A stretch of DNA of 63,059 nt from Patescibacteria group bacterium UBA1875 (GTDB taxonomy: Bacteria > Patescibacteriota > CPR2 > UBA1875): contig DDHN01000008.1 of the NCBI GenBank assembly GCA_002338125.1, positions 113,094 to 176,152 of the forward strand, written 5' to 3'. A program made the translations under genes and the position numbers. Below, piece after piece: positions 4,124-43,776 of the stretch. Under the pieces are notes generated by a model. That model was not told where the DNA came from and did not search any database. It was given only the letters and a program-made list of their open reading frames with translations. Numbering within the stretch: position 1 is the stretch's first letter; every line of letters starts with the position of its first letter.

Positions 4124-4177
4124 TCTTTTAAAGTAATAATCTTGTAATGAAGCGTCAACTGGATTACAATTTAATTC

Positions 4178-4954: not shown

Positions 4955-6066
4955 TGGAAAAAATGAAAGAATATTTAACTACGCTTGTTAAAATCACTGG
5001 TTACTCAATGAAAATGTTTTTTAGAGATCGGGCTGCTATTTTCTTTTCTCTGTTTTTACCGCTTCTCATAATGCTGATTTTTGGGATTCTTGATTTCGAG
5101 GGGAATCTAAATGTTCGTTTAACTATTATAGACAAAGCTGATAATCAGATTTCGGAGGGCTTTGTTTCTGGGCTTTCTAAAGTTGATCCGGTTACTGTTA
5201 CCGAAGGAGACGATAAAGAAGCAGCTATCGAGGCTATTGAAAACGAAGATTCAGATATGTTGATGATTCTTCCAAAAGATTTCGGGGCTTTAATAGGCAG
5301 AGAAGACACTATTCAGGAGATACCAATTTACTATAAAGAAAATACTCAAAGTAATGTTAGCCAAGTGGGCCTAACTATACTCAAAGAATATCTTGATGGG
5401 TACACGCACCAAGTAACAGGAACCCCTTATTTATTCGAACTAGCCGAAAACAAGGTAGAAGCCAAAGATTTAAAGTATATCGACTATCTCATACCGGGCA
5501 TTGTCGGTATGGGAATTATGTTTATGAGTATGTTTGGTGTCGTTGGAGCTATCGTCTCTTGGCGAGAGAGAGGAGTGATGAGGCGATTGCTAGCAACCCC
5601 AATCAGGCCGTCTATTGTCCTTGTAAGTCAGGTGATAACCCGTCTTACGATTGCAATTATGCAGGCTGCAATTATTATTCTTCTTGGGATTATCTTTTTT
5701 GATCTAACGGTTATCGGCAACTTTTTGCTAATTTTTCTAATCATAATTATGGGAGCAGCAATTTTCCTTACTTTTGGTTTCGCTATCTCCGGGGTTGGCA
5801 ATTCTCAAAATACAGCTACGGCTGTTGCAAATTTGTTCTTGATGCCACAAATGTTTTTATCGGGCACATTTTTTCCAAGAGATACTTTTCCGGAGTATTT
5901 AAAAGTGATTACTGACTACTTGCCTTTAACCTATCTTAATGACGCTCTTAGATTGGTTATGGTCGAAGGGAGAGGGTTTGTCGATATTGAGACTCCGTTA
6001 ATTGGTCTTACTGTTTGGATAGCGATTTCATTTTTTGCAGCTACAAAGCTTTTCAAGTGGGAGTGA
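4954..6066 (+). CDS. ABC-2 type transporter permease
   Basis: The start overlaps the ATPase stop (TAATG). It has an N-terminal TM helix, a large loop and a C-terminal cluster of about 5 TM helices, typical of the ABC-2 family. Confidence 0.8.
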   Translation: MEKMKEYLTTLVKITGYSMKMFFRDRAAIFFSLFLPLLIMLIFGILDFEGNLNVRLTIIDKADNQISEGFVSGLSKVDPVTVTEGDDKEAAIEAIENEDSDMLMILPKDFGALIGREDTIQEIPIYYKENTQSNVSQVGLTILKEYLDGYTHQVTGTPYLFELAENKVEAKDLKYIDYLIPGIVGMGIMFMSMFGVVGAIVSWRERGVMRRLLATPIRPSIVLVSQVITRLTIAIMQAAIIILLGIIFFDLTVIGNFLLIFLIIIMGAAIFLTFGFAISGVGNSQNTATAVANLFLMPQMFLSGTFFPRDTFPEYLKVITDYLPLTYLNDALRLVMVEGRGFVDIETPLIGLTVWIAISFFAATKLFKWE

Positions 6067-6068
6067 TC

Positions 6069-6695
6069 TTACAATAGCTTAGTCTTTTTAAATATCCGAG
6101 CCTTGAATAAATCTTTTTTAATGTATATTTGTTTTGCACCTGCCAATAGTGCAAACAACAGGGCCAAGAGCAGAGTCCATTCCGATGTCATTATTAAGAT
6201 GTCAGAGTTTAATATAAGTCCAGTGGCAAAAGCTATAATTGCAATGCTTTGTAAGATCATTTTTATTTTACCGAAAATATTTGCACCCATTGGTCGTCCG
6301 ATTACTTTATAGGCAAACCCAGAAACTATATTGGCTATAATTTCGATTAAGATGACAGTTAAGAATATTTTGATAATCAAATATTCGGTACCGATAATAA
6401 AAAGCATTAAACCGATCAAAAGCTTATCTGCAACAGGATCGATAATTTTGCCAAGATCAGTAATCTGGTTTTTTCTTCGAGCTAATGCTCCATCCAAAAA
6501 ATCTGTTGAGACAGCAAATGAGAATACAACCAAGCCTGCTAAATTGTAGTTGTTCCTAAATAACCAATAAATTAATGGTAAAAGCAAAAATCGGACCAGG
6601 GTTAGGTGGTTAGGTTTTATTTTTTCAGGGATAGCTTTAAAAAATATTTTTTCTATTAAGATATCTAGCTTATTTTGAAGATTTACTGATTTCAT
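6069..6695 (-). CDS. CDP-alcohol phosphatidyltransferase family protein
   Basis: DGx2ARx8Gx3Dx3D motif (DFLDGALARRKNQITDLGKIIDPVADK). Polytopic membrane protein. Confidence 0.85.
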   Translation of the reverse strand: MKSVNLQNKLDILIEKIFFKAIPEKIKPNHLTLVRFLLLPLIYWLFRNNYNLAGLVVFSFAVSTDFLDGALARRKNQITDLGKIIDPVADKLLIGLMLFIIGTEYLIIKIFLTVILIEIIANIVSGFAYKVIGRPMGANIFGKIKMILQSIAIIAFATGLILNSDILIMTSEWTLLLALLFALLAGAKQIYIKKDLFKARIFKKTKLL

Positions 6696-7475: not shown

Positions 7476-10400
7476 ATGTCGCAATCGATAAAATCGAATA
7501 AACTGGTGAAGGGTGGATTTGTTCATCTTCATGTTCACACTCACTATTCCTTACTTGATGGAATGTGCAAAATCCCGCAACTTTTAGACCGAGCCAAAGA
7601 TTATGGGATGCCGGCAGTAGCTATAACAGATCACGGTGTTATGTATGGTGTAGTCGAATTCTTAAAAGAGGCTAGGGCAAGGGGAATAAAACCAATTATC
7701 GGGTGTGAAGTCTATATCGCTCCAAGAGGAATGAGAGACAAAACCCCAAAAATTGATACAAACCCCTCGCACTTAGTCCTTTTGGCTAAAAACGAAATTG
7801 GCTATAAAAATTTGATGGAAATGGTCACTGAGGCACATCTTGAAGGTTATTACTATAAACCGCGAATTGATAAGGAACTACTTTCAAAAAAATTCGAAGG
7901 CTTGATAGCTTTGTCTTCTTGTTTACATAGTGAAATAGCAACTAATCTTTTAGAAAAAAATGAGAAGAAGGCACAGAAGGTACTCGATTTCTATAAAAAT
8001 CTTTTTGGTGATGACTTTTATATCGAACTTCAATTTAACCCCGGACTACCGGAACAGGATATTGCTAACAAAAAATTACTAAAATTAGCTAAGAAGAATA
8101 ATGTTAAAGTTGTAGCTAGTAAAGATGTCCACTATATCGATAAAGATGATCGAGAAGCCCATGATGCTTTAATATGTGTTCAGACAGGGAAAATGGTAAG
8201 CGACGAAGACCGGATGCGCTTTAATTCAGATCAATCATTCTTGTCGCCTCAGGAGATGGCAGATGCATTTAAGGATGTACCGGAAGCGATAACCAATACG
8301 CTAGAGGTTGCCGAAAAATGTGAATTTGGAGATAACTACAAACTGCCTTTTGCAGATGAGAAGAAGATTTTAATTCCTAAATTCGATATCCCAAAAGGGA
8401 AAACCAAAAGACAGTATTTAGAAGCCCTGGTCTCAAAAGGGCTCACCCAAAGATATAAAAAAATCACCAAAGCAATAAAAGATCGAGCTGCTTATGAATT
8501 GGAAGTAATTGAAAGAATGAAATTCGAGGATTATTTTTTGATTGTTGCGGATTTTGTAAACTGGGCTAAGGGTCAAGGTATATTAGTTGGCCCTGGCAGA
8601 GGTTCGGCTGCCGGTTCTGTTGTTTCTTATGCCTTGGGTATTGTTGATTTGGACCCCTTAAAATATGATCTTCTTTTTGAAAGATTTCTGAATCCAGATC
8701 GTATTTCGATGCCTGATATTGATATGGATTTTGCTGATGATCGAAGAAGTGAAGTTATTGAATATACGGTAGAAAAATACGGTAAAGATAAAGTAGCTCA
8801 GATCATAACTTTCGGGACTATGGCAGCTAGAAATGCTGTTAGGGATACTGGTCGTGTTCTTGGTATGAGTTATGCTGAGGTTGACGAAGTTGCTAAGGCA
8901 ATTCCTTCGAATATCCCTCTGGCTGTTTCGGTCAAAGAAGTCCCAGAGTTAGCGGCCTTTTACAATCAGGGGGGTAACTACAAAAAATTATTAGATTTAG
9001 CTCAAAGGTTAGAAGGAGTGGCTCGCCATTCCTCTACTCATGCAGCCGGAGTGGTTGTAGCTCAGGAGCCTTTGGTTGAGTTTACTCCGCTTCAAAAAGC
9101 AGTTAAGGGAGATGTCTCTTGGCAAACCCAGTATGAGATGCATGCTATCGAAGATCTTGGACTACTCAAAATGGACTTTTTGGGTCTCTCAAACTTAACA
9201 ATACTGAAAAATGCTCTACGGATTATTAAAAAAGTTTATGGTAAAGAAATAAATCTTTACGAACTACCCGATGATGACAAAAAAACTTACAAACTAATGA
9301 GCCAAGGGGAAACAACAGGAGTTTTTCAGCTTGAATCTTCCGGAATGAAGCGTTATTTAAAAGAACTTAAACCTAGTTGTTTCGAGGATGTTATAGCTAT
9401 GGTGGCAATGTATCGCCCAGGACCACTTAAATCAGGTATGGTTGATGAATTCATAGAGCGAAAGCATGGAAAAAGAAAGGTAACCTATCCTCACCCATTA
9501 ATGGAAAATGCTCTTTCTGATACTTATGGAGTTATTATTTATCAAGAACAGGTGATGCAACTTTCAAAGGATATGGCCGGTTTCACCGGAGGCCAGGCTG
9601 ATACTCTTAGAAAAGCTATGGGCAAAAAAATTAAAGATTTGATGGCCAAACTTAAAGTAGAATTTATCGAAGGTTGTGTAAAAAACAAAATAGATAAAAA
9701 AATAGCTGTAAAAACTTTTGAAGATATGGAAAAATTTGCTGAATATGGCTTCAATAAATCACATGCTGCATGTTATGCTCAAATTGCCTATTGGACCGCT
9801 TATTTAAAAGCTCATTTTCCTTCGGCTTTTATGGCGGCACTTTTAACCTCAGATTATTCGGATATTGACCGAATTGCTATTGAAATTTCTGAAGCTCAAG
9901 CCATGGGGATCGAGGTCCTTGGTCCCGATGTGAATGAATCATTTTCTGAATTTGGAGTTGCAAAAGATAGCGGTCAAATTAGATATGGATTAATTGCTAT
10001 AAAAAATGTTGGTAACGGAATTGTAGAAGCGATTCTTGATGCCCGAAAAGAGGGAGGCAAATTTACTGGAATTGAAGATTTTTGTATGCGAGTTAAGGCG
10101 GAGGAGGTCAACAAGAAGGTGATGGAAGCTCTGATAAAGTCGGGTGCTTTTGACTCTTTAAGTGATAGAAGTAAGCTTTTATATAACCTTGATAAGATAC
10201 TAGCTTTTACTCAAAAGGTTCAAAAAGGAGCAATTGATGGGCAAATGGGTCTTTTTGGAGAAGAGGCCAAGAATCAGGTTGCTTTTCACCTTGAACTCAT
10301 TGAACCAGAAGAAGAGTTAACAACAGAAGAGAAATTAGCTTTCGAAAAAGAACTTCTTGGAATATATTTTTCCGAACATCCGCTTGATGCCCATCAAGAC

Positions 10401-10955
10401 AAGATAAGGGCCTTACGGGTTGATAATATTGCTGATATTAATATTGCCAGCAATGGTAAGGGGGTAGTTTTAGGAGGGGTAGTTGTTCAGATTCAAAAAA
10501 TATTAACTAGAAAAAACGATCCAATGGCATTCATCCGCTTTGAAGATAAAACTGGCTCTACCGAGTTAATTGTATTCCCAAATACGCTTGAAAAATACCA
10601 ACATTTGATTGTAGAGGGAAAGATACTTTATGTTCGGGGGAAAATTAACAATAAAGACAACCAGCTTAAAGTATTAGTAGATTCGATAGAGGATTTAAAA
10701 ATTAAAGAAGCTAATAACAATGAAACTGTGAATACAAATTTTGTTCACGTTGATGACGTTGCTACAATAATAGTTCCGGAGGGAGTGACTGATACTGATT
10801 TAACGGCTTTGAAGGTTCTTTTAGCTACTCATAAAGGGGATACGGACACATATGTTGTTTTGCCTGGGAACGGTAAAATTAAAATGCCTTTTGGAATTGA
10901 TTTTTCGAACGGAATTACCGACGATATTAATGCTTTACTTTCAAGAAGGGGTTAA
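7476..10955 (+). CDS. dnaE: DNA polymerase III alpha subunit
   Basis: 1159 aa. N-terminal PHP domain (FVHLHVHTHYSLLDG), a polymerase core and a C-terminal OB-fold region. GAGGAG SD. Confidence 0.95.
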   Translation: MSQSIKSNKLVKGGFVHLHVHTHYSLLDGMCKIPQLLDRAKDYGMPAVAITDHGVMYGVVEFLKEARARGIKPIIGCEVYIAPRGMRDKTPKIDTNPSHLVLLAKNEIGYKNLMEMVTEAHLEGYYYKPRIDKELLSKKFEGLIALSSCLHSEIATNLLEKNEKKAQKVLDFYKNLFGDDFYIELQFNPGLPEQDIANKKLLKLAKKNNVKVVASKDVHYIDKDDREAHDALICVQTGKMVSDEDRMRFNSDQSFLSPQEMADAFKDVPEAITNTLEVAEKCEFGDNYKLPFADEKKILIPKFDIPKGKTKRQYLEALVSKGLTQRYKKITKAIKDRAAYELEVIERMKFEDYFLIVADFVNWAKGQGILVGPGRGSAAGSVVSYALGIVDLDPLKYDLLFERFLNPDRISMPDIDMDFADDRRSEVIEYTVEKYGKDKVAQIITFGTMAARNAVRDTGRVLGMSYAEVDEVAKAIPSNIPLAVSVKEVPELAAFYNQGGNYKKLLDLAQRLEGVARHSSTHAAGVVVAQEPLVEFTPLQKAVKGDVSWQTQYEMHAIEDLGLLKMDFLGLSNLTILKNALRIIKKVYGKEINLYELPDDDKKTYKLMSQGETTGVFQLESSGMKRYLKELKPSCFEDVIAMVAMYRPGPLKSGMVDEFIERKHGKRKVTYPHPLMENALSDTYGVIIYQEQVMQLSKDMAGFTGGQADTLRKAMGKKIKDLMAKLKVEFIEGCVKNKIDKKIAVKTFEDMEKFAEYGFNKSHAACYAQIAYWTAYLKAHFPSAFMAALLTSDYSDIDRIAIEISEAQAMGIEVLGPDVNESFSEFGVAKDSGQIRYGLIAIKNVGNGIVEAILDARKEGGKFTGIEDFCMRVKAEEVNKKVMEALIKSGAFDSLSDRSKLLYNLDKILAFTQKVQKGAIDGQMGLFGEEAKNQVAFHLELIEPEEELTTEEKLAFEKELLGIYFSEHPLDAHQDKIRALRVDNIADINIASNGKGVVLGGVVVQIQKILTRKNDPMAFIRFEDKTGSTELIVFPNTLEKYQHLIVEGKILYVRGKINNKDNQLKVLVDSIEDLKIKEANNNETVNTNFVHVDDVATIIVPEGVTDTDLTALKVLLATHKGDTDTYVVLPGNGKIKMPFGIDFSNGITDDINALLSRRG

Positions 10956-10977
10956 TAACCATAAAAAGAAAAAAGTA

Positions 10978-11006
10978 TTGACTTATATGCAATATTTTGG
11001 TATATT
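10978..11006 (+). promoter_or_regulatory. Sigma70-type promoter of island 1
   Basis: TTGACT (10978-10983), a 17-nt spacer, then TATATT (11001-11006) with an upstream TG (extended -10). Confidence 0.6.
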
Positions 11007-11013
11007 ATAGCGC

Positions 11014-11055
11014 ATCCGCTTCGGTGGATTGAACAATTTTCGACCTGTTAGGTCG
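11014..11055 (+). promoter_or_regulatory. Island 1 5' leader with two short hairpins
   Basis: ATCCGC-UUCG-GTGGAT (11014-11029) and CGACC-TGTTA-GGTCG (11041-11055). An AAGGAG SD lies at 11083-11088. Confidence 0.5.
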
Positions 11056-11093
11056 TTTGAACATTGAAAACATACCTAGTCTAAGGAGATATC

Positions 11094-11306
11094 ATGCGTT
11101 TTGCACTTCTTCCGCTTCTAGCAGCATCGATCATGCTCTTGGTGGGTATTGTCTTGTGTACAGATTGGAGGCCAGTTTCAAGGCTATTCAAGTCTCTGTA
11201 TCAAGACATTACTAATCCTAACCCGCTTTTCCCGGGACCATTCACTCGGTTCACGGGTATCATGCTTGGAACAGACATCGGCGAAGAGTCCAAGAAAGGA
11301 AGGTGA
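11094..11306 (+). CDS. Island 1 ORF-a: 70-aa protein with an N-terminal signal/anchor helix
   Basis: An AAGGAG SD lies 5 nt upstream of the ATG. The N-terminus (MRFALLPLLAASIMLLVGIVLC) is hydrophobic. No family recognised. Confidence 0.55.
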   Translation: MRFALLPLLAASIMLLVGIVLCTDWRPVSRLFKSLYQDITNPNPLFPGPFTRFTGIMLGTDIGEESKKGR

Positions 11307-11382
11307 AGGCGATGTATTTGGGTCCGTAACATTTCCTCATCGTTTGCGACAGAAAGGAAAACAACGATGAGGGAGGGGCAAC

Positions 11383-11652
11383 ATGAAGGGTTCAAGGTTC
11401 GACCATCGGGGTTACGAGATTTATCGCAACCCAGTTCCGGTAGAAATACTGGAAGAGATCGAAGGTAAGTTGACTCCTAGGGAGACAACTGGCTACGAGT
11501 TCGTTGTCTATCATGACGGTCTGCCGCTAGACATCAATGTCACGGCTCTTAATCGTCATCTTGGCCTCAAAGAGGTCAAGGAGTGGATCGATAGGCAGTT
11601 TGCAACACAAGCCGCAGCCGAGACCGACATTGTGTCGGCTCAGTCGAACTAG
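11383..11652 (+). CDS. Island 1 ORF-b: 89-aa soluble hypothetical protein
   Basis: A GAGGGAGGGG SD (11369-11378) precedes the ATG. No family recognised. Confidence 0.55.
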   Translation: MKGSRFDHRGYEIYRNPVPVEILEEIEGKLTPRETTGYEFVVYHDGLPLDINVTALNRHLGLKEVKEWIDRQFATQAAAETDIVSAQSN

Positions 11653-11661
11653 GGGAGGCAG

Positions 11662-12123
11662 ATGATGAAAACGGAAGAGAAGGTCGCATTTCTTGCCGAG
11701 ATGATCGAGGACTTCAATGCCCACGGTTGTCCAGGAAAGGCAGATACCGACAAGGGTCTCCACTATGCAAGGGAGATCATCGACTCGCTCCATCATTGCG
11801 AAAAGCCTGAGGAAGGGGCCGTATATCTCATTACGGCTCTTAGCTTCAAGGCCATTGTCGCGATGGAGGCAGGCTGCCATGCTGATGCGGCAGACTGTCC
11901 TTGTTTCGAAAGCTGCTACGTGTGGACACACGCAGCAGCTGCCAACCCATCCCGATCAATAGTCTCTCTGGTTAGCAAAGGGAGACGCTGCGAGATGGGT
12001 AATGTCGAGTGTTCACTGAACCTCGACAACCCTGGCCGAAGGCATCGTGAGAGCGAATCGCTTCTGGATGTTGATAAGGCCATGGCCGAGAGCTATGTTC
12101 CCGAATCCGGGGCGGCGTGGTAG
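11662..12123 (+). CDS. Island 1 ORF-c: 153-aa Cys/His-rich hypothetical protein
   Basis: A GGGGAGG SD (11652-11658) overlaps the ORF-b stop. It has 8 Cys, including HGC, HHC, GCH and DCPCFESC. Confidence 0.6.
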   Translation: MMKTEEKVAFLAEMIEDFNAHGCPGKADTDKGLHYAREIIDSLHHCEKPEEGAVYLITALSFKAIVAMEAGCHADAADCPCFESCYVWTHAAAANPSRSIVSLVSKGRRCEMGNVECSLNLDNPGRRHRESESLLDVDKAMAESYVPESGAAW

Positions 12124-12125
12124 CG

Positions 12126-12359
12126 ATGAACATAGAAATCATCGCCATGTGTATGGGTCGTGAGGGAACGGTTCTGCACGAGCCGTACACAGCAGCGAAT
12201 GTTGCTGCTGGTATCGTCCGTTCCGGTGGACGTGTCCTCGGAGTCGTCAAGTCAAACGTCGAAGGGGAGCCGATATTCCGGAAAACGGTAGAAATCGGTT
12301 CACCAGAAGAGATCAAGGAGTTCATTCTCGCTTTCTCAGGAGCTGAGGAGGGGGCATGA
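12126..12359 (+). CDS. Island 1 ORF-d: 77-aa hypothetical protein
   Basis: The ATG lies 2 nt after the ORF-c stop (an alternative GTG is at 12117). The stop overlaps the ORF-e start (ATGA). Confidence 0.5.
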   Translation: MNIEIIAMCMGREGTVLHEPYTAANVAAGIVRSGGRVLGVVKSNVEGEPIFRKTVEIGSPEEIKEFILAFSGAEEGA

Positions 12360-12565
12360 AGTGGTTCTGGGGTATCGTCTCCTTGGCAGTAATAACCTTA
12401 ATCGGTTTCGCTGCTGTTTGGGACCCAACCATTAGAGAGGCCGTAAGCGTTATTGCCTACTTGGCAATGGTTGCTGGCTTCTGGTGGATGGGGGTGAAAT
12501 TTGTTGGTCTTTGCGACGAAGTGAAGGCTAACAGTTTCGCAGCTTTCCATCGTGACAAGGACTAG
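12356..12565 (+). CDS. Island 1 ORF-e: 69-aa two-TM membrane protein
   Basis: A GAGGAGGGGG SD lies immediately upstream. There are two hydrophobic helices (FWGIVSLAVITLIGFAAVW and AVSVIAYLAMVAGFWWMGVKFVGL). Confidence 0.6.
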   Translation: MKWFWGIVSLAVITLIGFAAVWDPTIREAVSVIAYLAMVAGFWWMGVKFVGLCDEVKANSFAAFHRDKD

Positions 12566-12820
12566 GTGTTATCAGGCTCTGTTTCATACAGAGACAGCAC
12601 CTACTAGCAGATTGACTTCCGGGTAATACCTGGAGGCCGGATGCAGAGGGGGTTTTAGAGTTGTGAGCCCCTGCATCCGGCCGGTACTGGTCGTGCCAAC
12701 CCGTTCTCACAACGGGTACGACACTAAGGTACCGGTCGGTCTCCGAGTTAAAAACTCGGTCTGCGTCTAGGGATGACAGTTTTGCTTTGCGCGGCAAGGC
12801 TGTTATCCCTGATCATTCTA
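12566..12820 (+). ncRNA. Hairpin-dense non-coding 3' region of island 1 (candidate structured RNA)
   Basis: Six consecutive stable helices: 12577-12593, 12616-12636, 12636-12681, 12681-12735 (three stacked segments), 12743-12759 and 12769-12810. There is no plausible ORF with an SD. Confidence 0.45.
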
Positions 12821-12856
12821 CGGGCCCCAGTCTTCGGACGGGGCCCGTTCACTTTT
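12821..12856 (+). terminator. Island 1 rho-independent terminator
   Basis: CGGGCCCC-A-GTC-UUCG-GAC-GGGGCCCG (11-bp stem, UUCG loop) followed by TTCACTTTT. Confidence 0.75.
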
Positions 12857-12862
12857 AAAATA

Positions 12863-12891
12863 TTGACGAAAGTTTGTTTTTTTGATAATAT
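12863..12891 (+). promoter_or_regulatory. rplS promoter
   Basis: TTGACG, a 17-nt spacer, then TAATAT. The ATG is only about 12 nt downstream of the -10 and has no SD. Confidence 0.5.
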
Positions 12892-12903
12892 CTTCTGGCA
12901 ACT

Positions 12904-13626
12904 ATGAATACGCAATTATTAGAAAAAATAGAAAAAAGCCAGCTCAAGAAAGTTCCGGAAGTTCGTCCCGGTGATCTTGTTCGTGTTCATCAAAAGATTA
13001 AAGAAGGCAAAAAAGAAAGAATTCAGATATTTGAAGGAGTCGTTTTAAGGGTTAGGGGCGGTGGTCTTAGAAAATCTTTTATAGTAAGAAAGATATCCTT
13101 TGGTATTGGGGTTGAAAAGAGTTTCCTAATGCATGCTCCTAATATTATTAAAGTTGAAATCAAGAAAAGAGCGAAGGTCAGAAGGGCCTATTTGACTTAC
13201 CTTAGAAGACTGACGGGGAAAAAGGCTCGTCTTAAAGATGAACAATTTGATTCTTTGGTAGTAAATGTAGAGCCAGAGCCAATCGAAACTGATAAAGAAT
13301 CCGAAAAGGGAGAAAAAACCTCTGATAGTGAGATTGCTGAAATCGATCCAGCAAAAACAGCTAATGTGGAAGTAGTTGAAGTCCCTTTATCGGAAGTAGA
13401 AAAAGAAGAGATAAAACAAGCAGAAGCTGAAGATGAGACAAAAGAAGGTCTAGATGAAGATGATCATCAAAAAATCGAGATTGAAGAAGTAGAAAAAGGT
13501 ATCGAAGAGGCCGAAAAAGATCTAGAAAAAGGCAAGACTAAAAAAACCGATCAAGCCGAAAAAGAAAAAGAAGACATTTCCCAAGAAGAAATTAAAGAAG
13601 AAATAAAAGAAGAAAAAGAGGCTTAA
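12904..13626 (+). CDS. rplS: Ribosomal protein L19 with a long acidic C-terminal extension
   Basis: L19 core (RPGDLVRVHQKIKEGKKERIQIFEGVVL...), followed by about 125 Glu/Lys-rich residues. Confidence 0.9.
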   Translation: MNTQLLEKIEKSQLKKVPEVRPGDLVRVHQKIKEGKKERIQIFEGVVLRVRGGGLRKSFIVRKISFGIGVEKSFLMHAPNIIKVEIKKRAKVRRAYLTYLRRLTGKKARLKDEQFDSLVVNVEPEPIETDKESEKGEKTSDSEIAEIDPAKTANVEVVEVPLSEVEKEEIKQAEAEDETKEGLDEDDHQKIEIEEVEKGIEEAEKDLEKGKTKKTDQAEKEKEDISQEEIKEEIKEEKEA

Positions 13627-28256: not shown

Positions 28257-28265
28257 GCGATATTA

Positions 28266-28302
28266 TCCGGTGCTAATACCGGAAGTCTCGATTGTGGTCG
28301 AG
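28266..28302 (+). promoter_or_regulatory. Island 2 5' leader with two short hairpins
   Basis: TCCGGT-GCTAAT-ACCGGA (28266-28283) and CTCGA-TTGTGG-TCGAG (28287-28302). An AAGGAAG SD lies at 28311-28317. Confidence 0.5.
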
Positions 28303-28325
28303 TTGACATTAAGGAAGTGATTTGA

Positions 28326-29258
28326 GTGTCTAGTGAGGGCAACGTCTTTGTTGTACGTCTCGACTTCCAGCTCAGCCCTTCGATCGACTTGTTCGATCTT
28401 GAAGACGGAGAAGGAAGGGTCTTCCTGAATCATGCCCCTGAGGTCATTAAAGAGAAGGGAGAATTTGTCCTCGTGCAATCAGAGGGACAATTTGGTTTCT
28501 CCCTTATCCCAGCTGCACCGATGAAAGCTGGGTACAAGAGGGTTGATTCCATCAAGAAGCTTGTGGAGTTGGTGCTTGAGTTTGGGCTGTGTAAGCCCTT
28601 CGTCCCGCGTGGCTACCATGGAATTGTCGAAAAGGGTTTGAGCGATCAGCTCCATAAGGCCTACAACGAGTGCCGATTCGGTTCCTACGTCAAGCTTCCT
28701 GATTCAAGTGTGGTGTTGGTGGTCAGCGATGAAGCTCTTGACCCAGGAACGTTTGTTGAGGCTCGGCGAGCCTGGAACAACGTTCTCGTTGTTGGGCGAG
28801 CTGAGTTCGAGAGCCGGCAACCATTCCGACACGAGAACTGGGCTAGCTTTGTAAGCGCTCTGATGGCTAGCTACCCTCAGCAAGTCAAAGGGCACTTGAC
28901 TCCTCGTAAGCCGCCAAGGAGGATTCAGGGAACTTGGGCCGGTCCCGACCTCGACTACATTAACCGTCGGGGGCAAGCCTCAACTCGTTTGCTTGTTGAC
29001 GGACAAGAAGAAGGGTCTGTCGTTACCGTGTATTTCACGCGTTGCGACAAAAACCCTTCCGTTCCGATCAGAACTGGTGAGGCTGTTGAGGTTTGGTATG
29101 CCGGTAAAGGTAACATTGCGGTTATCCCTTACGCTGGCCGAACCACTCAAGTCCTGCGACCAAGAGAGCTAGTCAGAGAGCTGGGAGTGCAAAGAGACAG
29201 TCTCGATGAGAGAAAACTCTCATCATACGACAACGTTCGCGTGGTCTACACTTCCTGA
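28326..29258 (+). CDS. Island 2 ORF: 310-aa soluble hypothetical protein
   Basis: The GTG start lies 8 nt downstream of AAGGAAG. There is no TM helix or signal peptide. The protein is beta-rich and Arg-rich, and no family is recognised. Confidence 0.65.
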   Translation: MSSEGNVFVVRLDFQLSPSIDLFDLEDGEGRVFLNHAPEVIKEKGEFVLVQSEGQFGFSLIPAAPMKAGYKRVDSIKKLVELVLEFGLCKPFVPRGYHGIVEKGLSDQLHKAYNECRFGSYVKLPDSSVVLVVSDEALDPGTFVEARRAWNNVLVVGRAEFESRQPFRHENWASFVSALMASYPQQVKGHLTPRKPPRRIQGTWAGPDLDYINRRGQASTRLLVDGQEEGSVVTVYFTRCDKNPSVPIRTGEAVEVWYAGKGNIAVIPYAGRTTQVLRPRELVRELGVQRDSLDERKLSSYDNVRVVYTS

Positions 29259-29271
29259 AGTAGTCCCTTGT

Positions 29272-29300
29272 AACGGGCGCCTATCGAGGCGCCCGTTTTC
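29272..29300 (+). terminator. Island 2 rho-independent terminator
   Basis: AACGGGCGCC-TATCGA-GGCGCCCGTT followed by TTC and a T-rich tract. Confidence 0.75.
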
Positions 29301-42933: not shown

Positions 42934-42976
42934 ATTGATAACGTTAATACGAGAAACTTGAAGGCAGGTGAGGAAG

Positions 42977-43129
42977 ATGCTTTCGAGAACAAGAGAAAGA
43001 GTAGCAAACATTATCGCATGCTCTTTGCTCTCGCTCTTTTTCCTCATCCTTAAACAATTAGTTCTGTCAGCTGTTACCGGCTTGATTGTCTTTTGTGATA
43101 GCTTTTCAAAGCCAACGTGGAAGGAGTGA
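42977..43129 (+). CDS. Island 3 ORF-a: 50-aa hydrophobic peptide (absent from the ORF track)
   Basis: GGTGAGGAAG SD. MLSRTRERVANIIACSLLSLFFLILKQLVLSAVTGLIVFCDSFSKPTWKE, with 1-2 TM segments. Confidence 0.5.
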   Translation: MLSRTRERVANIIACSLLSLFFLILKQLVLSAVTGLIVFCDSFSKPTWKE

Positions 43130-43131
43130 TT

Positions 43132-43278
43132 ATGGGTCTCCAAATGCTTGGTATTATTCTAATGATTGTCTTTATGGCTATCGTGGGTGGTTTGTTGACA
43201 AGAGTCTACGTCAAACGCCTTGATGAACAGGCCGCAATGTACCTCGATCATGAGGACCAGATCATCTCTGAGCTTTGA
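43132..43278 (+). CDS. Island 3 ORF-b: 48-aa single-TM peptide (absent from the ORF track)
   Basis: The AAGGAG SD overlaps the ORF-a stop and the ATG lies 2 nt after that stop. MGLQMLGIILMIVFMAIVGGLL is followed by an acidic tail. Confidence 0.5.
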   Translation: MGLQMLGIILMIVFMAIVGGLLTRVYVKRLDEQAAMYLDHEDQIISEL

Positions 43279-43290
43279 GGGGGGAGTGTG

Positions 43291-43611
43291 ATGACCAGAA
43301 AGAAAGCTGACAGGCTGTGCGCTAAAGGCTTGGCAGCTGACCCAGACTATTGCTTGTATGATGAAGGAAGTGTCTGCCCGTGTGAACGGTACTACCAGAA
43401 ACTGACAAGGCCTTCGCTTGGTCGATTACTTCTTTCAACTATTACGTTGCAAAAGGATGAAACCGCGTCGTGTGTTGGTTGTTTGACGGAATCTCAGACA
43501 GCGTGTCCGTCATGTGTCAACAGTTCGGCTCACGAACGGTTGCTGGCAGCCTGTCCCCCGATCCGAGGAGGTTCTGCCGATGAAGGAATTCATTGCTTCG
43601 GGTGGCGGTAG
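43291..43611 (+). CDS. Island 3 ORF-c: 106-aa Cys-rich protein
   Basis: A GAGGGGGGAG SD precedes ATG 43291 (a GTG lies at 43288). It has 10 Cys, including VCPC, CVGC and CPSC. Confidence 0.6.
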   Translation: MTRKKADRLCAKGLAADPDYCLYDEGSVCPCERYYQKLTRPSLGRLLLSTITLQKDETASCVGCLTESQTACPSCVNSSAHERLLAACPPIRGGSADEGIHCFGWR

Positions 43612-43693
43612 CTACCTTCTTGTTGGTATCACGGTCCTTGTTTGTCTGACTGGTGGGGCGATTCATTACAATCGAATTCGTCCTCGGCGCTAA
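43580..43693 (+). CDS. Island 3 ORF-d: 37-aa single-TM peptide (absent from the ORF track)
   Basis: GAGGAGG SD at 43565-43571. It overlaps the ORF-c end by 32 nt. MKEFIASGGGSYLLVGITVLVCLTGGAIHYNRIRPRR. Confidence 0.45.
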   Translation: MKEFIASGGGSYLLVGITVLVCLTGGAIHYNRIRPRR

Positions 43694-43734
43694 TTGTCAA
43701 AGGAGGAGAGAGTGGCCTGTGTAGCACCTTAGTT

Positions 43735-43776
43735 GGCCCCGGTTACAATATTGTAATCCGGGGCCTTCTTTATATT
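43735..43776 (+). terminator. Island 3 rho-independent terminator
   Basis: GGCCCCGG-TTACAA..TTGTAA-(T)-CCGGGGCC extended hairpin followed by TTCTTTATATT. Confidence 0.75.

Follow-up and report, generated by a model that had tools for sequence, protein, structure and literature searches.

A GC-rich operon of small orphan proteins with a conserved structured 3' tail between dnaE and rplS in Saccharibacteria-like bacteria

In the tiny genomes of candidate phyla radiation bacteria such as Saccharibacteria, most lineage-specific genes are unexplained. The locus described here raises the question of what such an organism keeps in a 1.95-kb gap between dnaE (positions 7476 to 10955) and rplS (12904 to 13626), in which a GC-rich core at 11012 to 12860 (island 1) is found. 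The gap lies in a 63,059-nucleotide (nt) stretch of contig DDHN01000008.1 (referred to as the window, the positions of which are used throughout), a part of the chromosome of a Saccharibacteria-like (Patescibacteria) organism from oil-reservoir metagenomes. A preliminary description, made from the letters of the window, had read the island as a tightly packed operon of five open reading frames (ORFs) with membrane proteins at both ends and with a foreign, phage moron-like character. The operon was borne out by the analyses presented below, and the foreign character was not. The description had also overlooked the main oddity of the locus, an exceptional degree of structure throughout the transcript, which terminates in a 300-nt RNA tail that is conserved and covaries. 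The RNA itself appears to be no less important than the small membrane proteins that it encodes. The reading preferred here, with confidence that is about evenly balanced, is that of a self-contained, vertically inherited operon in which a coupled set of small membrane proteins is carried on a highly structured mRNA maintained by selection.

Small genes of the dnaE-rplS island and their orthologues

Five ORFs (a to e) tile the plus strand of the island, separated by 76 nt (a to b), 9 nt (b to c, or 12 nt if counted from the second ATG of c), and 2 nt (c to d), with an ATGA overlap between d and e. Shine-Dalgarno (SD) sites were found 5 to 8 nt before the starts of a (AAGGAG), b (GAGGGAGGGG), c (GGGGAGG), and e (GAGGAGGGGG), and the start of d was without one. 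The coordinates, the gaps, the overlapping layout, and the presence of strong SDs at four of the five starts were all as initially described. Plus-strand ORFs of at least 60 amino acids (aa) covered 1,451 of 1,849 nt, compared to 747 ± 293 nt in dinucleotide shuffles (5 of 1,000 shuffles as high), and five SD-preceded ORFs were counted on this strand, compared to a shuffle mean of 0.67 (1 of 1,000 dinucleotide shuffles as high). Because dinucleotide shuffles rarely matched either the coverage or the SD count, the tiling is non-random; the layout is more than chance and is not a by-product of composition. Long antisense ORFs were also present in the island, and the alternative that the genes lie on the minus strand was checked by the same count, in which no SD-preceded ORF was found on that strand. 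SD sites at the correct spacing were thus confined to the plus strand, where the genes had been placed. Codon-position composition was coding-like for b to e, with a frequency of G at first codon positions (G1) of 0.38 to 0.47 and a low GC content at second codon positions (GC2).

Kyte-Doolittle hydropathy assigned one transmembrane (TM) segment to a, two to e, and none to b, c, or d, in agreement with the earlier view of two membrane proteins bracketing three soluble ones. The characterization of c as Cys/His-rich was likewise correct (8 Cys and 7 His).

Orthologous islands were present in other Saccharibacteria-like genomes, designated L087, L092, L094, and L095, of which L087 and L095 represent near-identical strains; only four independent orthologues were available. 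Every homologue of c occupied the same slot, in the order dnaE, island, rplS, rnhB, nusA, and clpB. The flanking proteins were 52 to 80% identical between genomes (DnaE, 64 to 72%; NusA, 75 to 80%), compared to 28 to 36% for c. Common to four islands were a promoter directly after dnaE, a single-TM first ORF with a good SD, c, a tail of approximately 270 to 300 nt closed by a GGGCC...GGCCC hairpin and a U run, and then a separate rplS promoter. More distant Saccharibacteria also carried dnaE upstream of rplS, with a gap of 112 to 222 nt or with ordinary genes at ordinary GC content between them, and had no island. Strain-level single-nucleotide polymorphisms were sought for a ratio of nonsynonymous to synonymous substitution rates (dN/dS), and the island was 100% identical in six independent contigs of this organism. 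No integrase, repeats, or target duplication was found at the island. Vertical inheritance is indicated because the same dnaE-rplS slot is occupied in four to five diverged species. As judged from this comparison, the island was not inserted recently; it is old, has been inherited vertically, and is specific to a clade of a few Saccharibacteria.

The five ORFs differed in how widely they recurred. A first-position TM ORF with an SD, matching a, was found in L087, L092, and L094, with weak sequence similarity. A two-TM ORF corresponding to e began 2 to 6 nt after c in three islands and was missing from L094. ORF b was 42% identical to its counterpart in L092 (positions 5708 to 5986; BLASTP, E = 1e-17), and its slot was taken elsewhere by an unrelated ORF of 135 aa (b2, in L087) or, in L094, by a Cys-rich ORF of 57 aa with an ATGA overlap to c. 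In L087, L092, and L095, c and e had no d between them. A tightly packed operon of small proteins with membrane proteins at both ends, as initially proposed, was supported by the positional recurrence of a and e in other species and by protein-level homologues of b and c. The proposal of a five-gene unit held in part: all five ORFs are real here, but the conserved portion comprises only a, c, and, in most species, e, together with the 3' tail, with b shared by two species and d restricted to this genome. On this distribution, a, c, e, and the tail are the core, and b and d are accessory.

The junction between b and c was better conserved than the proteins on either side of it. The sequence CAGTCGAACTAG-RGGWGGCAG, which runs from the 3' end of b through its stop codon to the SD of c (11633 to 11661), was 83% identical at the nucleotide level to L092 positions 5970 to 5998 over 29 nt, with the proteins at approximately 40%. 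This junction is, from its sequence, a candidate conserved translational-coupling or RNA element. ORFs b and c share a frame across a single TAG in this genome, and a read-through fusion of the two was considered and ruled out by their different frames in L092.

An exhaustive HMMER search of 1.84 billion proteins returned three remote homologues of c (E = 2e-10 to 8e-7; approximately 36% identity), to which a profile search added a fourth, and a word-indexed protein search matched c only in this organism. The family amounted to 5 clusters among approximately 15 billion predicted proteins, and c matched nothing in Pfam or among Protein Data Bank (PDB) sequences. By these comparisons, c is a new and very rare protein family. 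Invariant positions in the five-member alignment were H72, D74, A75, C78, C84, G106, C109, C116-S-L-N, and P123, giving the pattern H-x5-C-x5-C ... C-x6-C and not HxxxCxxC. An AlphaFold2 model built with the five-sequence alignment was all-helical and confident over residues 1 to 125 (predicted local distance difference test [pLDDT] score, 78; predicted template modeling [pTM] score, 0.75), and the model from the single sequence (pLDDT, 41) was unusable. Foldseek comparison of the c model with the PDB and BFVD gave no match with an E value of <0.7. Neither a signal peptide nor a TM helix was found in c, which is probably a cytoplasmic protein with a metal or redox center formed by a His/Cys4 cluster. 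Zinc-binding anti-sigma factors (ZAS) and Cys-rich helical metal proteins (Csp, DUF326) were considered as relatives and rejected, given the absence of HxxxCxxC, of any Pfam, NCBIfam, or PDB match, and of an adjacent sigma factor gene.

Differences between the near-identical strains L087 and L095 were concentrated in c. Over 290 nt (L087 positions 5952 to 6243), a stretch that takes in the last part of the ORF before c and the N-terminal half of c itself, 47 differences were found, including 24 nonsynonymous and 15 synonymous changes; the next 830 nt contained 1 difference. The N-terminal half of c looks like a localized recombination or diversifying hot spot. That c evolves fast and is hypervariable between strains hints at a role in the envelope, in contact with the host, or in conflict.

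ORFs a to e, together with the ORFs of two further GC-rich islands in the window (islands 2 and 3), were compared with Pfam, PHROGs, PADLOC, and NCBIfam, and nothing exceeded the thresholds; at a cutoff of E ≤ 1, a to e had no match in PADLOC-DB version 2. The initial statement that no enzyme, nucleoside triphosphatase (NTPase), or nuclease motif could be recognized was consistent with these profile searches, in which no well-characterized family was matched. A match of e to Phage_holin_2 (PF23778) was below the threshold (E = 0.046; 14.4 bits, compared to the 32-bit Pfam cutoff), and profile searches of the locus found no endolysin-like gene. No significant viral or phage relatives were detected in PHROGs, in IMG/VR scans, by blastn against INPHARED phages, or in a BFVD fold search. 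Neither the concatenated proteins nor the c alignment retrieved relatives from viral and metagenome contigs, the metagenome set seemingly lacking even the source contig. A word-indexed search with concatenated a, b, d, and e was uninformative, returning nothing, not even the organism's own proteins, from a database apparently without such short proteins. The proteins of island 1 showed no relation to those of islands 2 and 3 (BLASTP and hhalign).

Composition and folding of the transcript

The GC content of the island was 0.46 to 0.60 (0.50 overall), compared to approximately 0.37 in the surrounding DNA. In all four species, the GC content at third codon positions (GC3) was 0.46 to 0.82 in island genes and 0.23 to 0.42 in neighboring genes. 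Imported DNA that is not under selection drifts toward the composition of its host. Because c is only 28 to 36% identical between species, its synonymous sites have turned over many times, and GC3 is still high; by standard amelioration reasoning, GC3 is therefore selected and not a foreign remnant. These observations argue for high GC content kept by selection at the nucleic acid level and not for foreign origin. The reading of the island as a foreign, phage moron-like module, which had been based on composition, small size, and coupling, was contradicted by the shared position between dnaE and rplS in all of the four to five diverged species, by the lack of viral or phage relatives, and by the high GC3 in every lineage. 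As a caution, GC-rich, "foreign-looking" islands in AT-rich genomes can be old, native, and RNA constrained and not horizontally acquired.

Predicted folding was in excess over nearly all of the message. In 150-nt sliding windows between 11350 and 12900, the fold was 3 to 6 standard deviations better than dinucleotide shuffles nearly throughout, with z scores of approximately 0 in the flanking genes and the control region. The excess was likewise found in L087, L092, and especially L094 (z scores down to -8), and z scores were very negative on both strands of the island. In synonymous-codon shuffles performed within each ORF, with the protein and codon usage held constant, the native sequence was more stable for a (z = -3.0), b (z = -4.1), c (z = -4.9), and e (z = -4.4), as it was for c in L087 (z = -6.5) and L094 (z = -10.4). 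In the same shuffles, nothing remarkable was seen for d, rnhB, or the ORF of island 3; d was coding-like (G1, 0.47) and had no excess of RNA structure (z = -0.8). What is conserved across the coding region is the degree of folding. In the hypervariable stretch of L087 and L095, RNAalifold gave 3 compensatory changes and 0 broken among 83 pairs, a result of little weight, as the method picks structures that fit both sequences.

Transcription of the island is predicted to start at approximately 11012 to 11014, where GC content begins to rise, and an equivalent promoter (TTGAC[T/G]-17-TAnnnT) lies directly after dnaE in L087, L092, and L094. Each of the two small hairpins in the 5' untranslated region (UTR) is followed by UUGAACA, and the SD of a is at 11083 to 11088. 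The hairpin in the a-b spacer has perfect 10-bp arms (11335 to 11344 and 11363 to 11372), and in its predicted fold a CCUC anti-SD pairs with the SD of b, the zone of which had a predicted probability of being unpaired of 0.11. In this genome, the ribosome-binding site (RBS) of a was predicted to be the most accessible (probability of being unpaired, 0.51), with the starts of d and e buried (0.15 to 0.17). Wherever e is present, its RBS was the least accessible one (predicted probability of being unpaired, 0.12 to 0.26).

The 3' tail carried the clearest evidence of conserved structure. Its core in the window was 77% identical to that of L087, compared to approximately 40% for c at the nucleotide level, and among 39 pairs shared by the window and L087, 9 were compensatory, 6 were changed on one side, and 0 were broken. 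In hairpin P2, which was registered by hand in all four species, 8 of 11 pairs showed compensatory change and 95.5% of cells were paired, a result equaled by 0 of 500 shuffles; slid controls were 25 to 39% paired. In L092 and L094, sequence conservation of the tail was limited to P2, the general architecture, and the terminator. The tail RNA was placed on the plus strand because of its G-U pairs and the downstream U tract. A 10-nt string comprising the stop codon and the first bases of the tail (TAGGTGTTAT) was identical at window positions 12563 to 12575 and at L094 positions 2222 to 2234. Because TAGGTGTTAT follows e here and c in L094, the junction with the tail is conserved independently of the last ORF. 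The tail is a new covarying RNA element, and it shares one predicted transcript with the conserved proteins b and c, a combination of covarying structure and conserved protein that is expected of a dual-function structured mRNA.

At the Rfam 15 gathering threshold, the whole window contained only a tRNA-Leu, with OLE, GOLLD, ROOL, HEARO, raiA, the L19 leader, group I and II introns, RNase P, transfer-messenger RNA (tmRNA), and other families unmatched. In E-value mode, both strands of the island and of the L087 and L094 islands gave only subthreshold chance matches. A minus-strand gene of 27 residues that the Joint Genome Institute (JGI) annotation places over the tail (positions 10920 to 11237 of contig L001, equivalent to window positions 12584 to 12901) was considered as an RNA gene and rejected, having neither Rfam nor tRNA support; the call is probably spurious and caused by the GC-rich hairpins. 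The coordinates of all features are given in Table 1.

Table 1. Positions of the features of island 1 and its borders in the window
Feature	Position(s)	Strand	Description and basis
Sigma-70-type promoter of the island	10978-11006	+	TTGACT-17 nt-TATATT, TG before the -10 box; promoter scan score, 10/12
5' UTR	11012-11093	+	Two small hairpins, 11014-11029 (UUCG loop) and 11041-11055; sequence, direct repeat D9, and minimum free energy (MFE) fold
ORF a	11094-11306	+	70 aa; one N-terminal TM helix or signal anchor; core, positionally conserved
a-b spacer hairpin	11333-11376	+	Inverted repeat I17 and MFE fold
ORF b	11383-11652	+	89 aa; soluble; accessory, common to L092 only
ORF c	11662/11665-12123	+	152-153 aa; helical, Cys/His-rich; signature gene of the locus
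ORF d	12126-12359	+	77 aa; soluble; 2 nt after c; this genome only
ORF e	12356-12565	+	69 aa; two-TM hairpin, charged C-terminal tail; core in 3 of 4 species
Structured 3' tail	12566-12860	+	Fold, -153 kcal/mol; z = -8.0
Tail hairpins	12579-12595; P1, ~12620-12634; P2, 12635-12682	+	Predicted fold
P3	12682-12734	+	Closed by 12632-12635/12741-12744; predicted fold
P4 and P5	P4, 12743-12759; P5, ~12768-12811	+	Predicted fold
Terminal hairpin	12822-12846	+	GGGCC...GGCCC, then CUUUU at 12852-12856; conserved in orthologous islands
rplS promoter	12863-12891	+	TTGACG-17-TAATAT; promoter scan; conserved in L087 and L094; downstream border, outside the island

Proposed mode of action and competing explanations

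The sequences directly show the ORFs, how these are conserved and syntenic, that GC3 is selected, that folding is in excess, and that hairpins of the tail covary. From these, complex formation, a role for the Cys cluster, the logic of coupling, and functions for the tail and for the locus in the cell can be inferred as follows. A strong promoter just after dnaE would give rise to a single polycistronic RNA of approximately 1.85 kb that ends at the conserved terminal hairpin, before the rplS promoter. This RNA would encode a membrane-associated set consisting of a (single-pass TM), c (cytoplasmic and helical), and e (two-TM hairpin), with b and d as lineage-specific add-ons. Selection would hold the message GC-rich and heavily paired, synonymous sites included, and the fold would leave only the start nearest the 5' end open to free ribosomes. 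Ribosomes coming from the preceding ORF would be needed to open the starts of b, d, and especially e, a hand-over that fits because the downstream starts are predicted to be buried and are joined by the 2-nt gap and the ATGA overlap. The proteins would then be produced at a set ratio to one another and in controlled, probably small, amounts, presumably for a membrane-associated complex. The 300-nt tail, with P2, P3, and the terminal hairpins, may act as a 3' stabilizer, a processing site, or a protein-binding site.

The locus takes up 2 kb between essential genes and has long been retained there under an unusual double constraint, acting on the proteins and on an mRNA with GC content and folding far above those of the rest of the genome. 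A functional fold would make the locus a clear bacterial example in which synonymous sites are selected for the architecture of an mRNA over the full length of an operon, and the tail would be a new covarying RNA element for RNA family databases.

Several observations weigh against the preferred reading. ORF a has a flat codon-position composition without periodicity, and a and e are kept only in position and hydrophobicity, at 17 to 31% identity. The structural model of c rests on five sequences only. With nucleotide identity in the coding region at approximately 40%, conserved helices could be demonstrated only in the tail. A covariance model of the tail core found L092 weakly and missed L094, and the terminal hairpin, in which the U run is displaced by 5 to 7 nt, went uncalled in the terminator scan. 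The accessibility of RBSs, like termination a thermodynamic prediction, was not uniform, in that a was not the most open start in L092 and L094.

Among known systems, the locus would work most like a dual-function or type I toxin-style structured mRNA, though several times larger and multicistronic. Like the dual-function RNAs RNAIII/hld of Staphylococcus aureus, SgrS/SgrT, and SR1/SR1P, it has a folded transcript with its own promoter and terminator, small proteins, and structure beyond what coding needs. Those RNAs, however, measure 0.2 to 0.5 kb and have one tiny ORF and known base-pairing targets, whereas the island measures 1.85 kb and has four to five ORFs over approximately 80% of its length, and no sequence or Rfam relationship to them was found.

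The alternative that survives best, although it is considered unlikely, is that the island is a toxic-membrane-protein module in which the mRNA fold serves as a safety catch, following type I toxin-antitoxin or minimal abortive-infection logic. In an arrangement of this kind, a and/or e would damage membranes, c would be a sensor or antidote, and translation would be off until RNA processing or a trigger. The small TM proteins (with one and two helices), the holin-like size and topology of e, its weak, subthreshold match to Phage_holin_2, and an RBS of e predicted to be buried in every species with e would suit such a module. So would a highly structured mRNA resembling the hok, tisB, and aapA messages, the quick turnover of accessory ORFs, and the hypervariable N-terminal half of c between near-identical strains. 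The hok/sok, tisB/istR, and aapA/isoA loci have in common with the island small hydrophobic proteins, folded mRNAs, sequestered RBSs, and coupling, all of which are predictions here. Unlike these loci, the island is multi-ORF, encodes a 152-aa soluble protein, and occupies a fixed core position; no PADLOC or PHROG family was matched. A consensus scan of the minus strand over positions 10800 to 13000, which is a weak test, gave nothing promoter-like from which an antisense RNA might start. The island, with its five ORFs and 1.85 kb, is also far larger than type I loci, its fixed core-genome slot across species is unlike those of typical mobile toxin-antitoxin or defense islands, and L094 has lost e and kept the rest. 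Resemblance to a phage lysis cassette with a class II holin is limited to e, with its 69 aa, two TM helices, and charged C terminus; the Phage_holin_2 score was far below the threshold, and neither an endolysin nor a phage context was found.

A more far-reaching reading, and a rather improbable one, is that the transcript represents a hitherto undescribed type of coding RNA in bacteria, with a selected global fold comparable to the genome-scale ordered RNA structure of RNA viruses. It would act as a structural or regulatory RNA with its own small membrane proteins, as a self-encoded membrane ribonucleoprotein of ultra-small, episymbiotic bacteria in which P2 and P3 would form the protein-binding or processing core. 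It is similarly improbable, and if anything slightly more so, that the RNA comes first, with the transcript or a processed 3' tail being a large functional RNA that works with the encoded membrane proteins in the manner of OLE RNA and OapA. Such an RNA would account for GC3 and excess folding that persist in four lineages despite largely diverged proteins, as well as for tail hairpins that covary within a core far more conserved between the window and L087 than c is. GC-rich stretches in AT-rich genomes are a classic sign of structured non-coding RNAs and were reportedly used by Stav et al. in 2019 to find them. The island resembles OLE RNA with OapA and OapB, GOLLD, ROOL, HEARO, and raiA in being a large, GC-rich, ornate RNA of an AT-rich genome that is lineage-restricted and associated with small membrane proteins. 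OLE, however, is non-coding, with partners encoded beside it and not within it, and no Rfam model matched the island on either strand. Protein-level constraint on b and c is clear, conserved helices were demonstrated only outside the coding region, and the tail sequence of L092 and L094 is unrecognizable beyond P2, the architecture, and the terminator, all of which argue against the RNA as the primary product.

A recent foreign cassette, such as a phage moron or accessory module retaining the GC content of its donor, is largely refuted and very improbable. It would explain the contrast in GC content (0.50 versus 0.37), the orphan proteins in small, tightly packed genes, and the occurrence of two more GC-rich orphan islands in the same window. 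The island is nevertheless orthologous and syntenic in four to five species in which DnaE is only 64 to 72% identical, and GC3 is high in all of them, which would not be expected of unselected foreign DNA over that divergence. Phage, viral, and plasmid-type searches gave no match; integrase, repeats, and target duplication were absent; and the flanks (dnaE and rplS-rnhB-nusA-clpB) are not those of a prophage, with promoters of the host type. Folding through the coding sequence, a predicted gating of downstream cistrons by structure and upstream translation, and a small TM gene recall the genomes of single-stranded RNA phages and viruses (MS2-type control), but the island is chromosomal, has a bacterial promoter and terminator, and carries neither replicase, coat, or maturation genes nor viral homologues. 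A purely non-coding giant RNA with accidental ORFs, which the very negative folding z scores on both strands, the long antisense ORFs, and the lack of codon periodicity in a might suggest, is scarcely credible given protein-level homology of b and c that survives approximately 60% nucleotide divergence, enrichment of G1 in b to e, SD sites on the plus strand only, and TM ORFs conserved in position.

Other GC-rich islands and neighboring genes

The second GC-rich island (28260 to 29300; GC content, 0.51 to 0.56) lies in the gap between recG and rsmD and has a promoter (TTGACA-17-TATTAT), a single orphan ORF of 310 aa (28326 to 29258), and a clean intrinsic terminator (GGGCGCC...GGCGCCC UUUU, approximately 29272 to 29297). 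Its ORF had no Pfam, PHROG, PADLOC, or NCBIfam match, and its excess of RNA folding was mild (z scores of approximately -1 to -3).

The third GC-rich island (42950 to 43770) lies in the gap between fusA and tuf and repeats the TM/Cys-rich/TM layout of island 1, with a 48-aa TM ORF (43132 to 43278), a 106-aa ORF with 11 Cys (43291 to 43611), and an overlapping 37-aa TM ORF (43581 to 43693), followed by a terminator hairpin. No sequence relation to island 1 was detectable, and its coding part showed no excess folding.

Downstream of island 1, only 12 nt separate the -10 box of the rplS promoter from the ATG, without a visible SD (12863 to 12906); the same layout was found in L094. The L19 mRNA may therefore be leaderless or nearly so. 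L19 itself carries a C-terminal extension of approximately 120 aa (13260 to 13626) that is acidic, Glu/Lys-rich, and internally repetitive. In one strain contig (L005, approximately 4125 to 4174), a 68-nt deletion within this extension disrupts the frame of the gene call.

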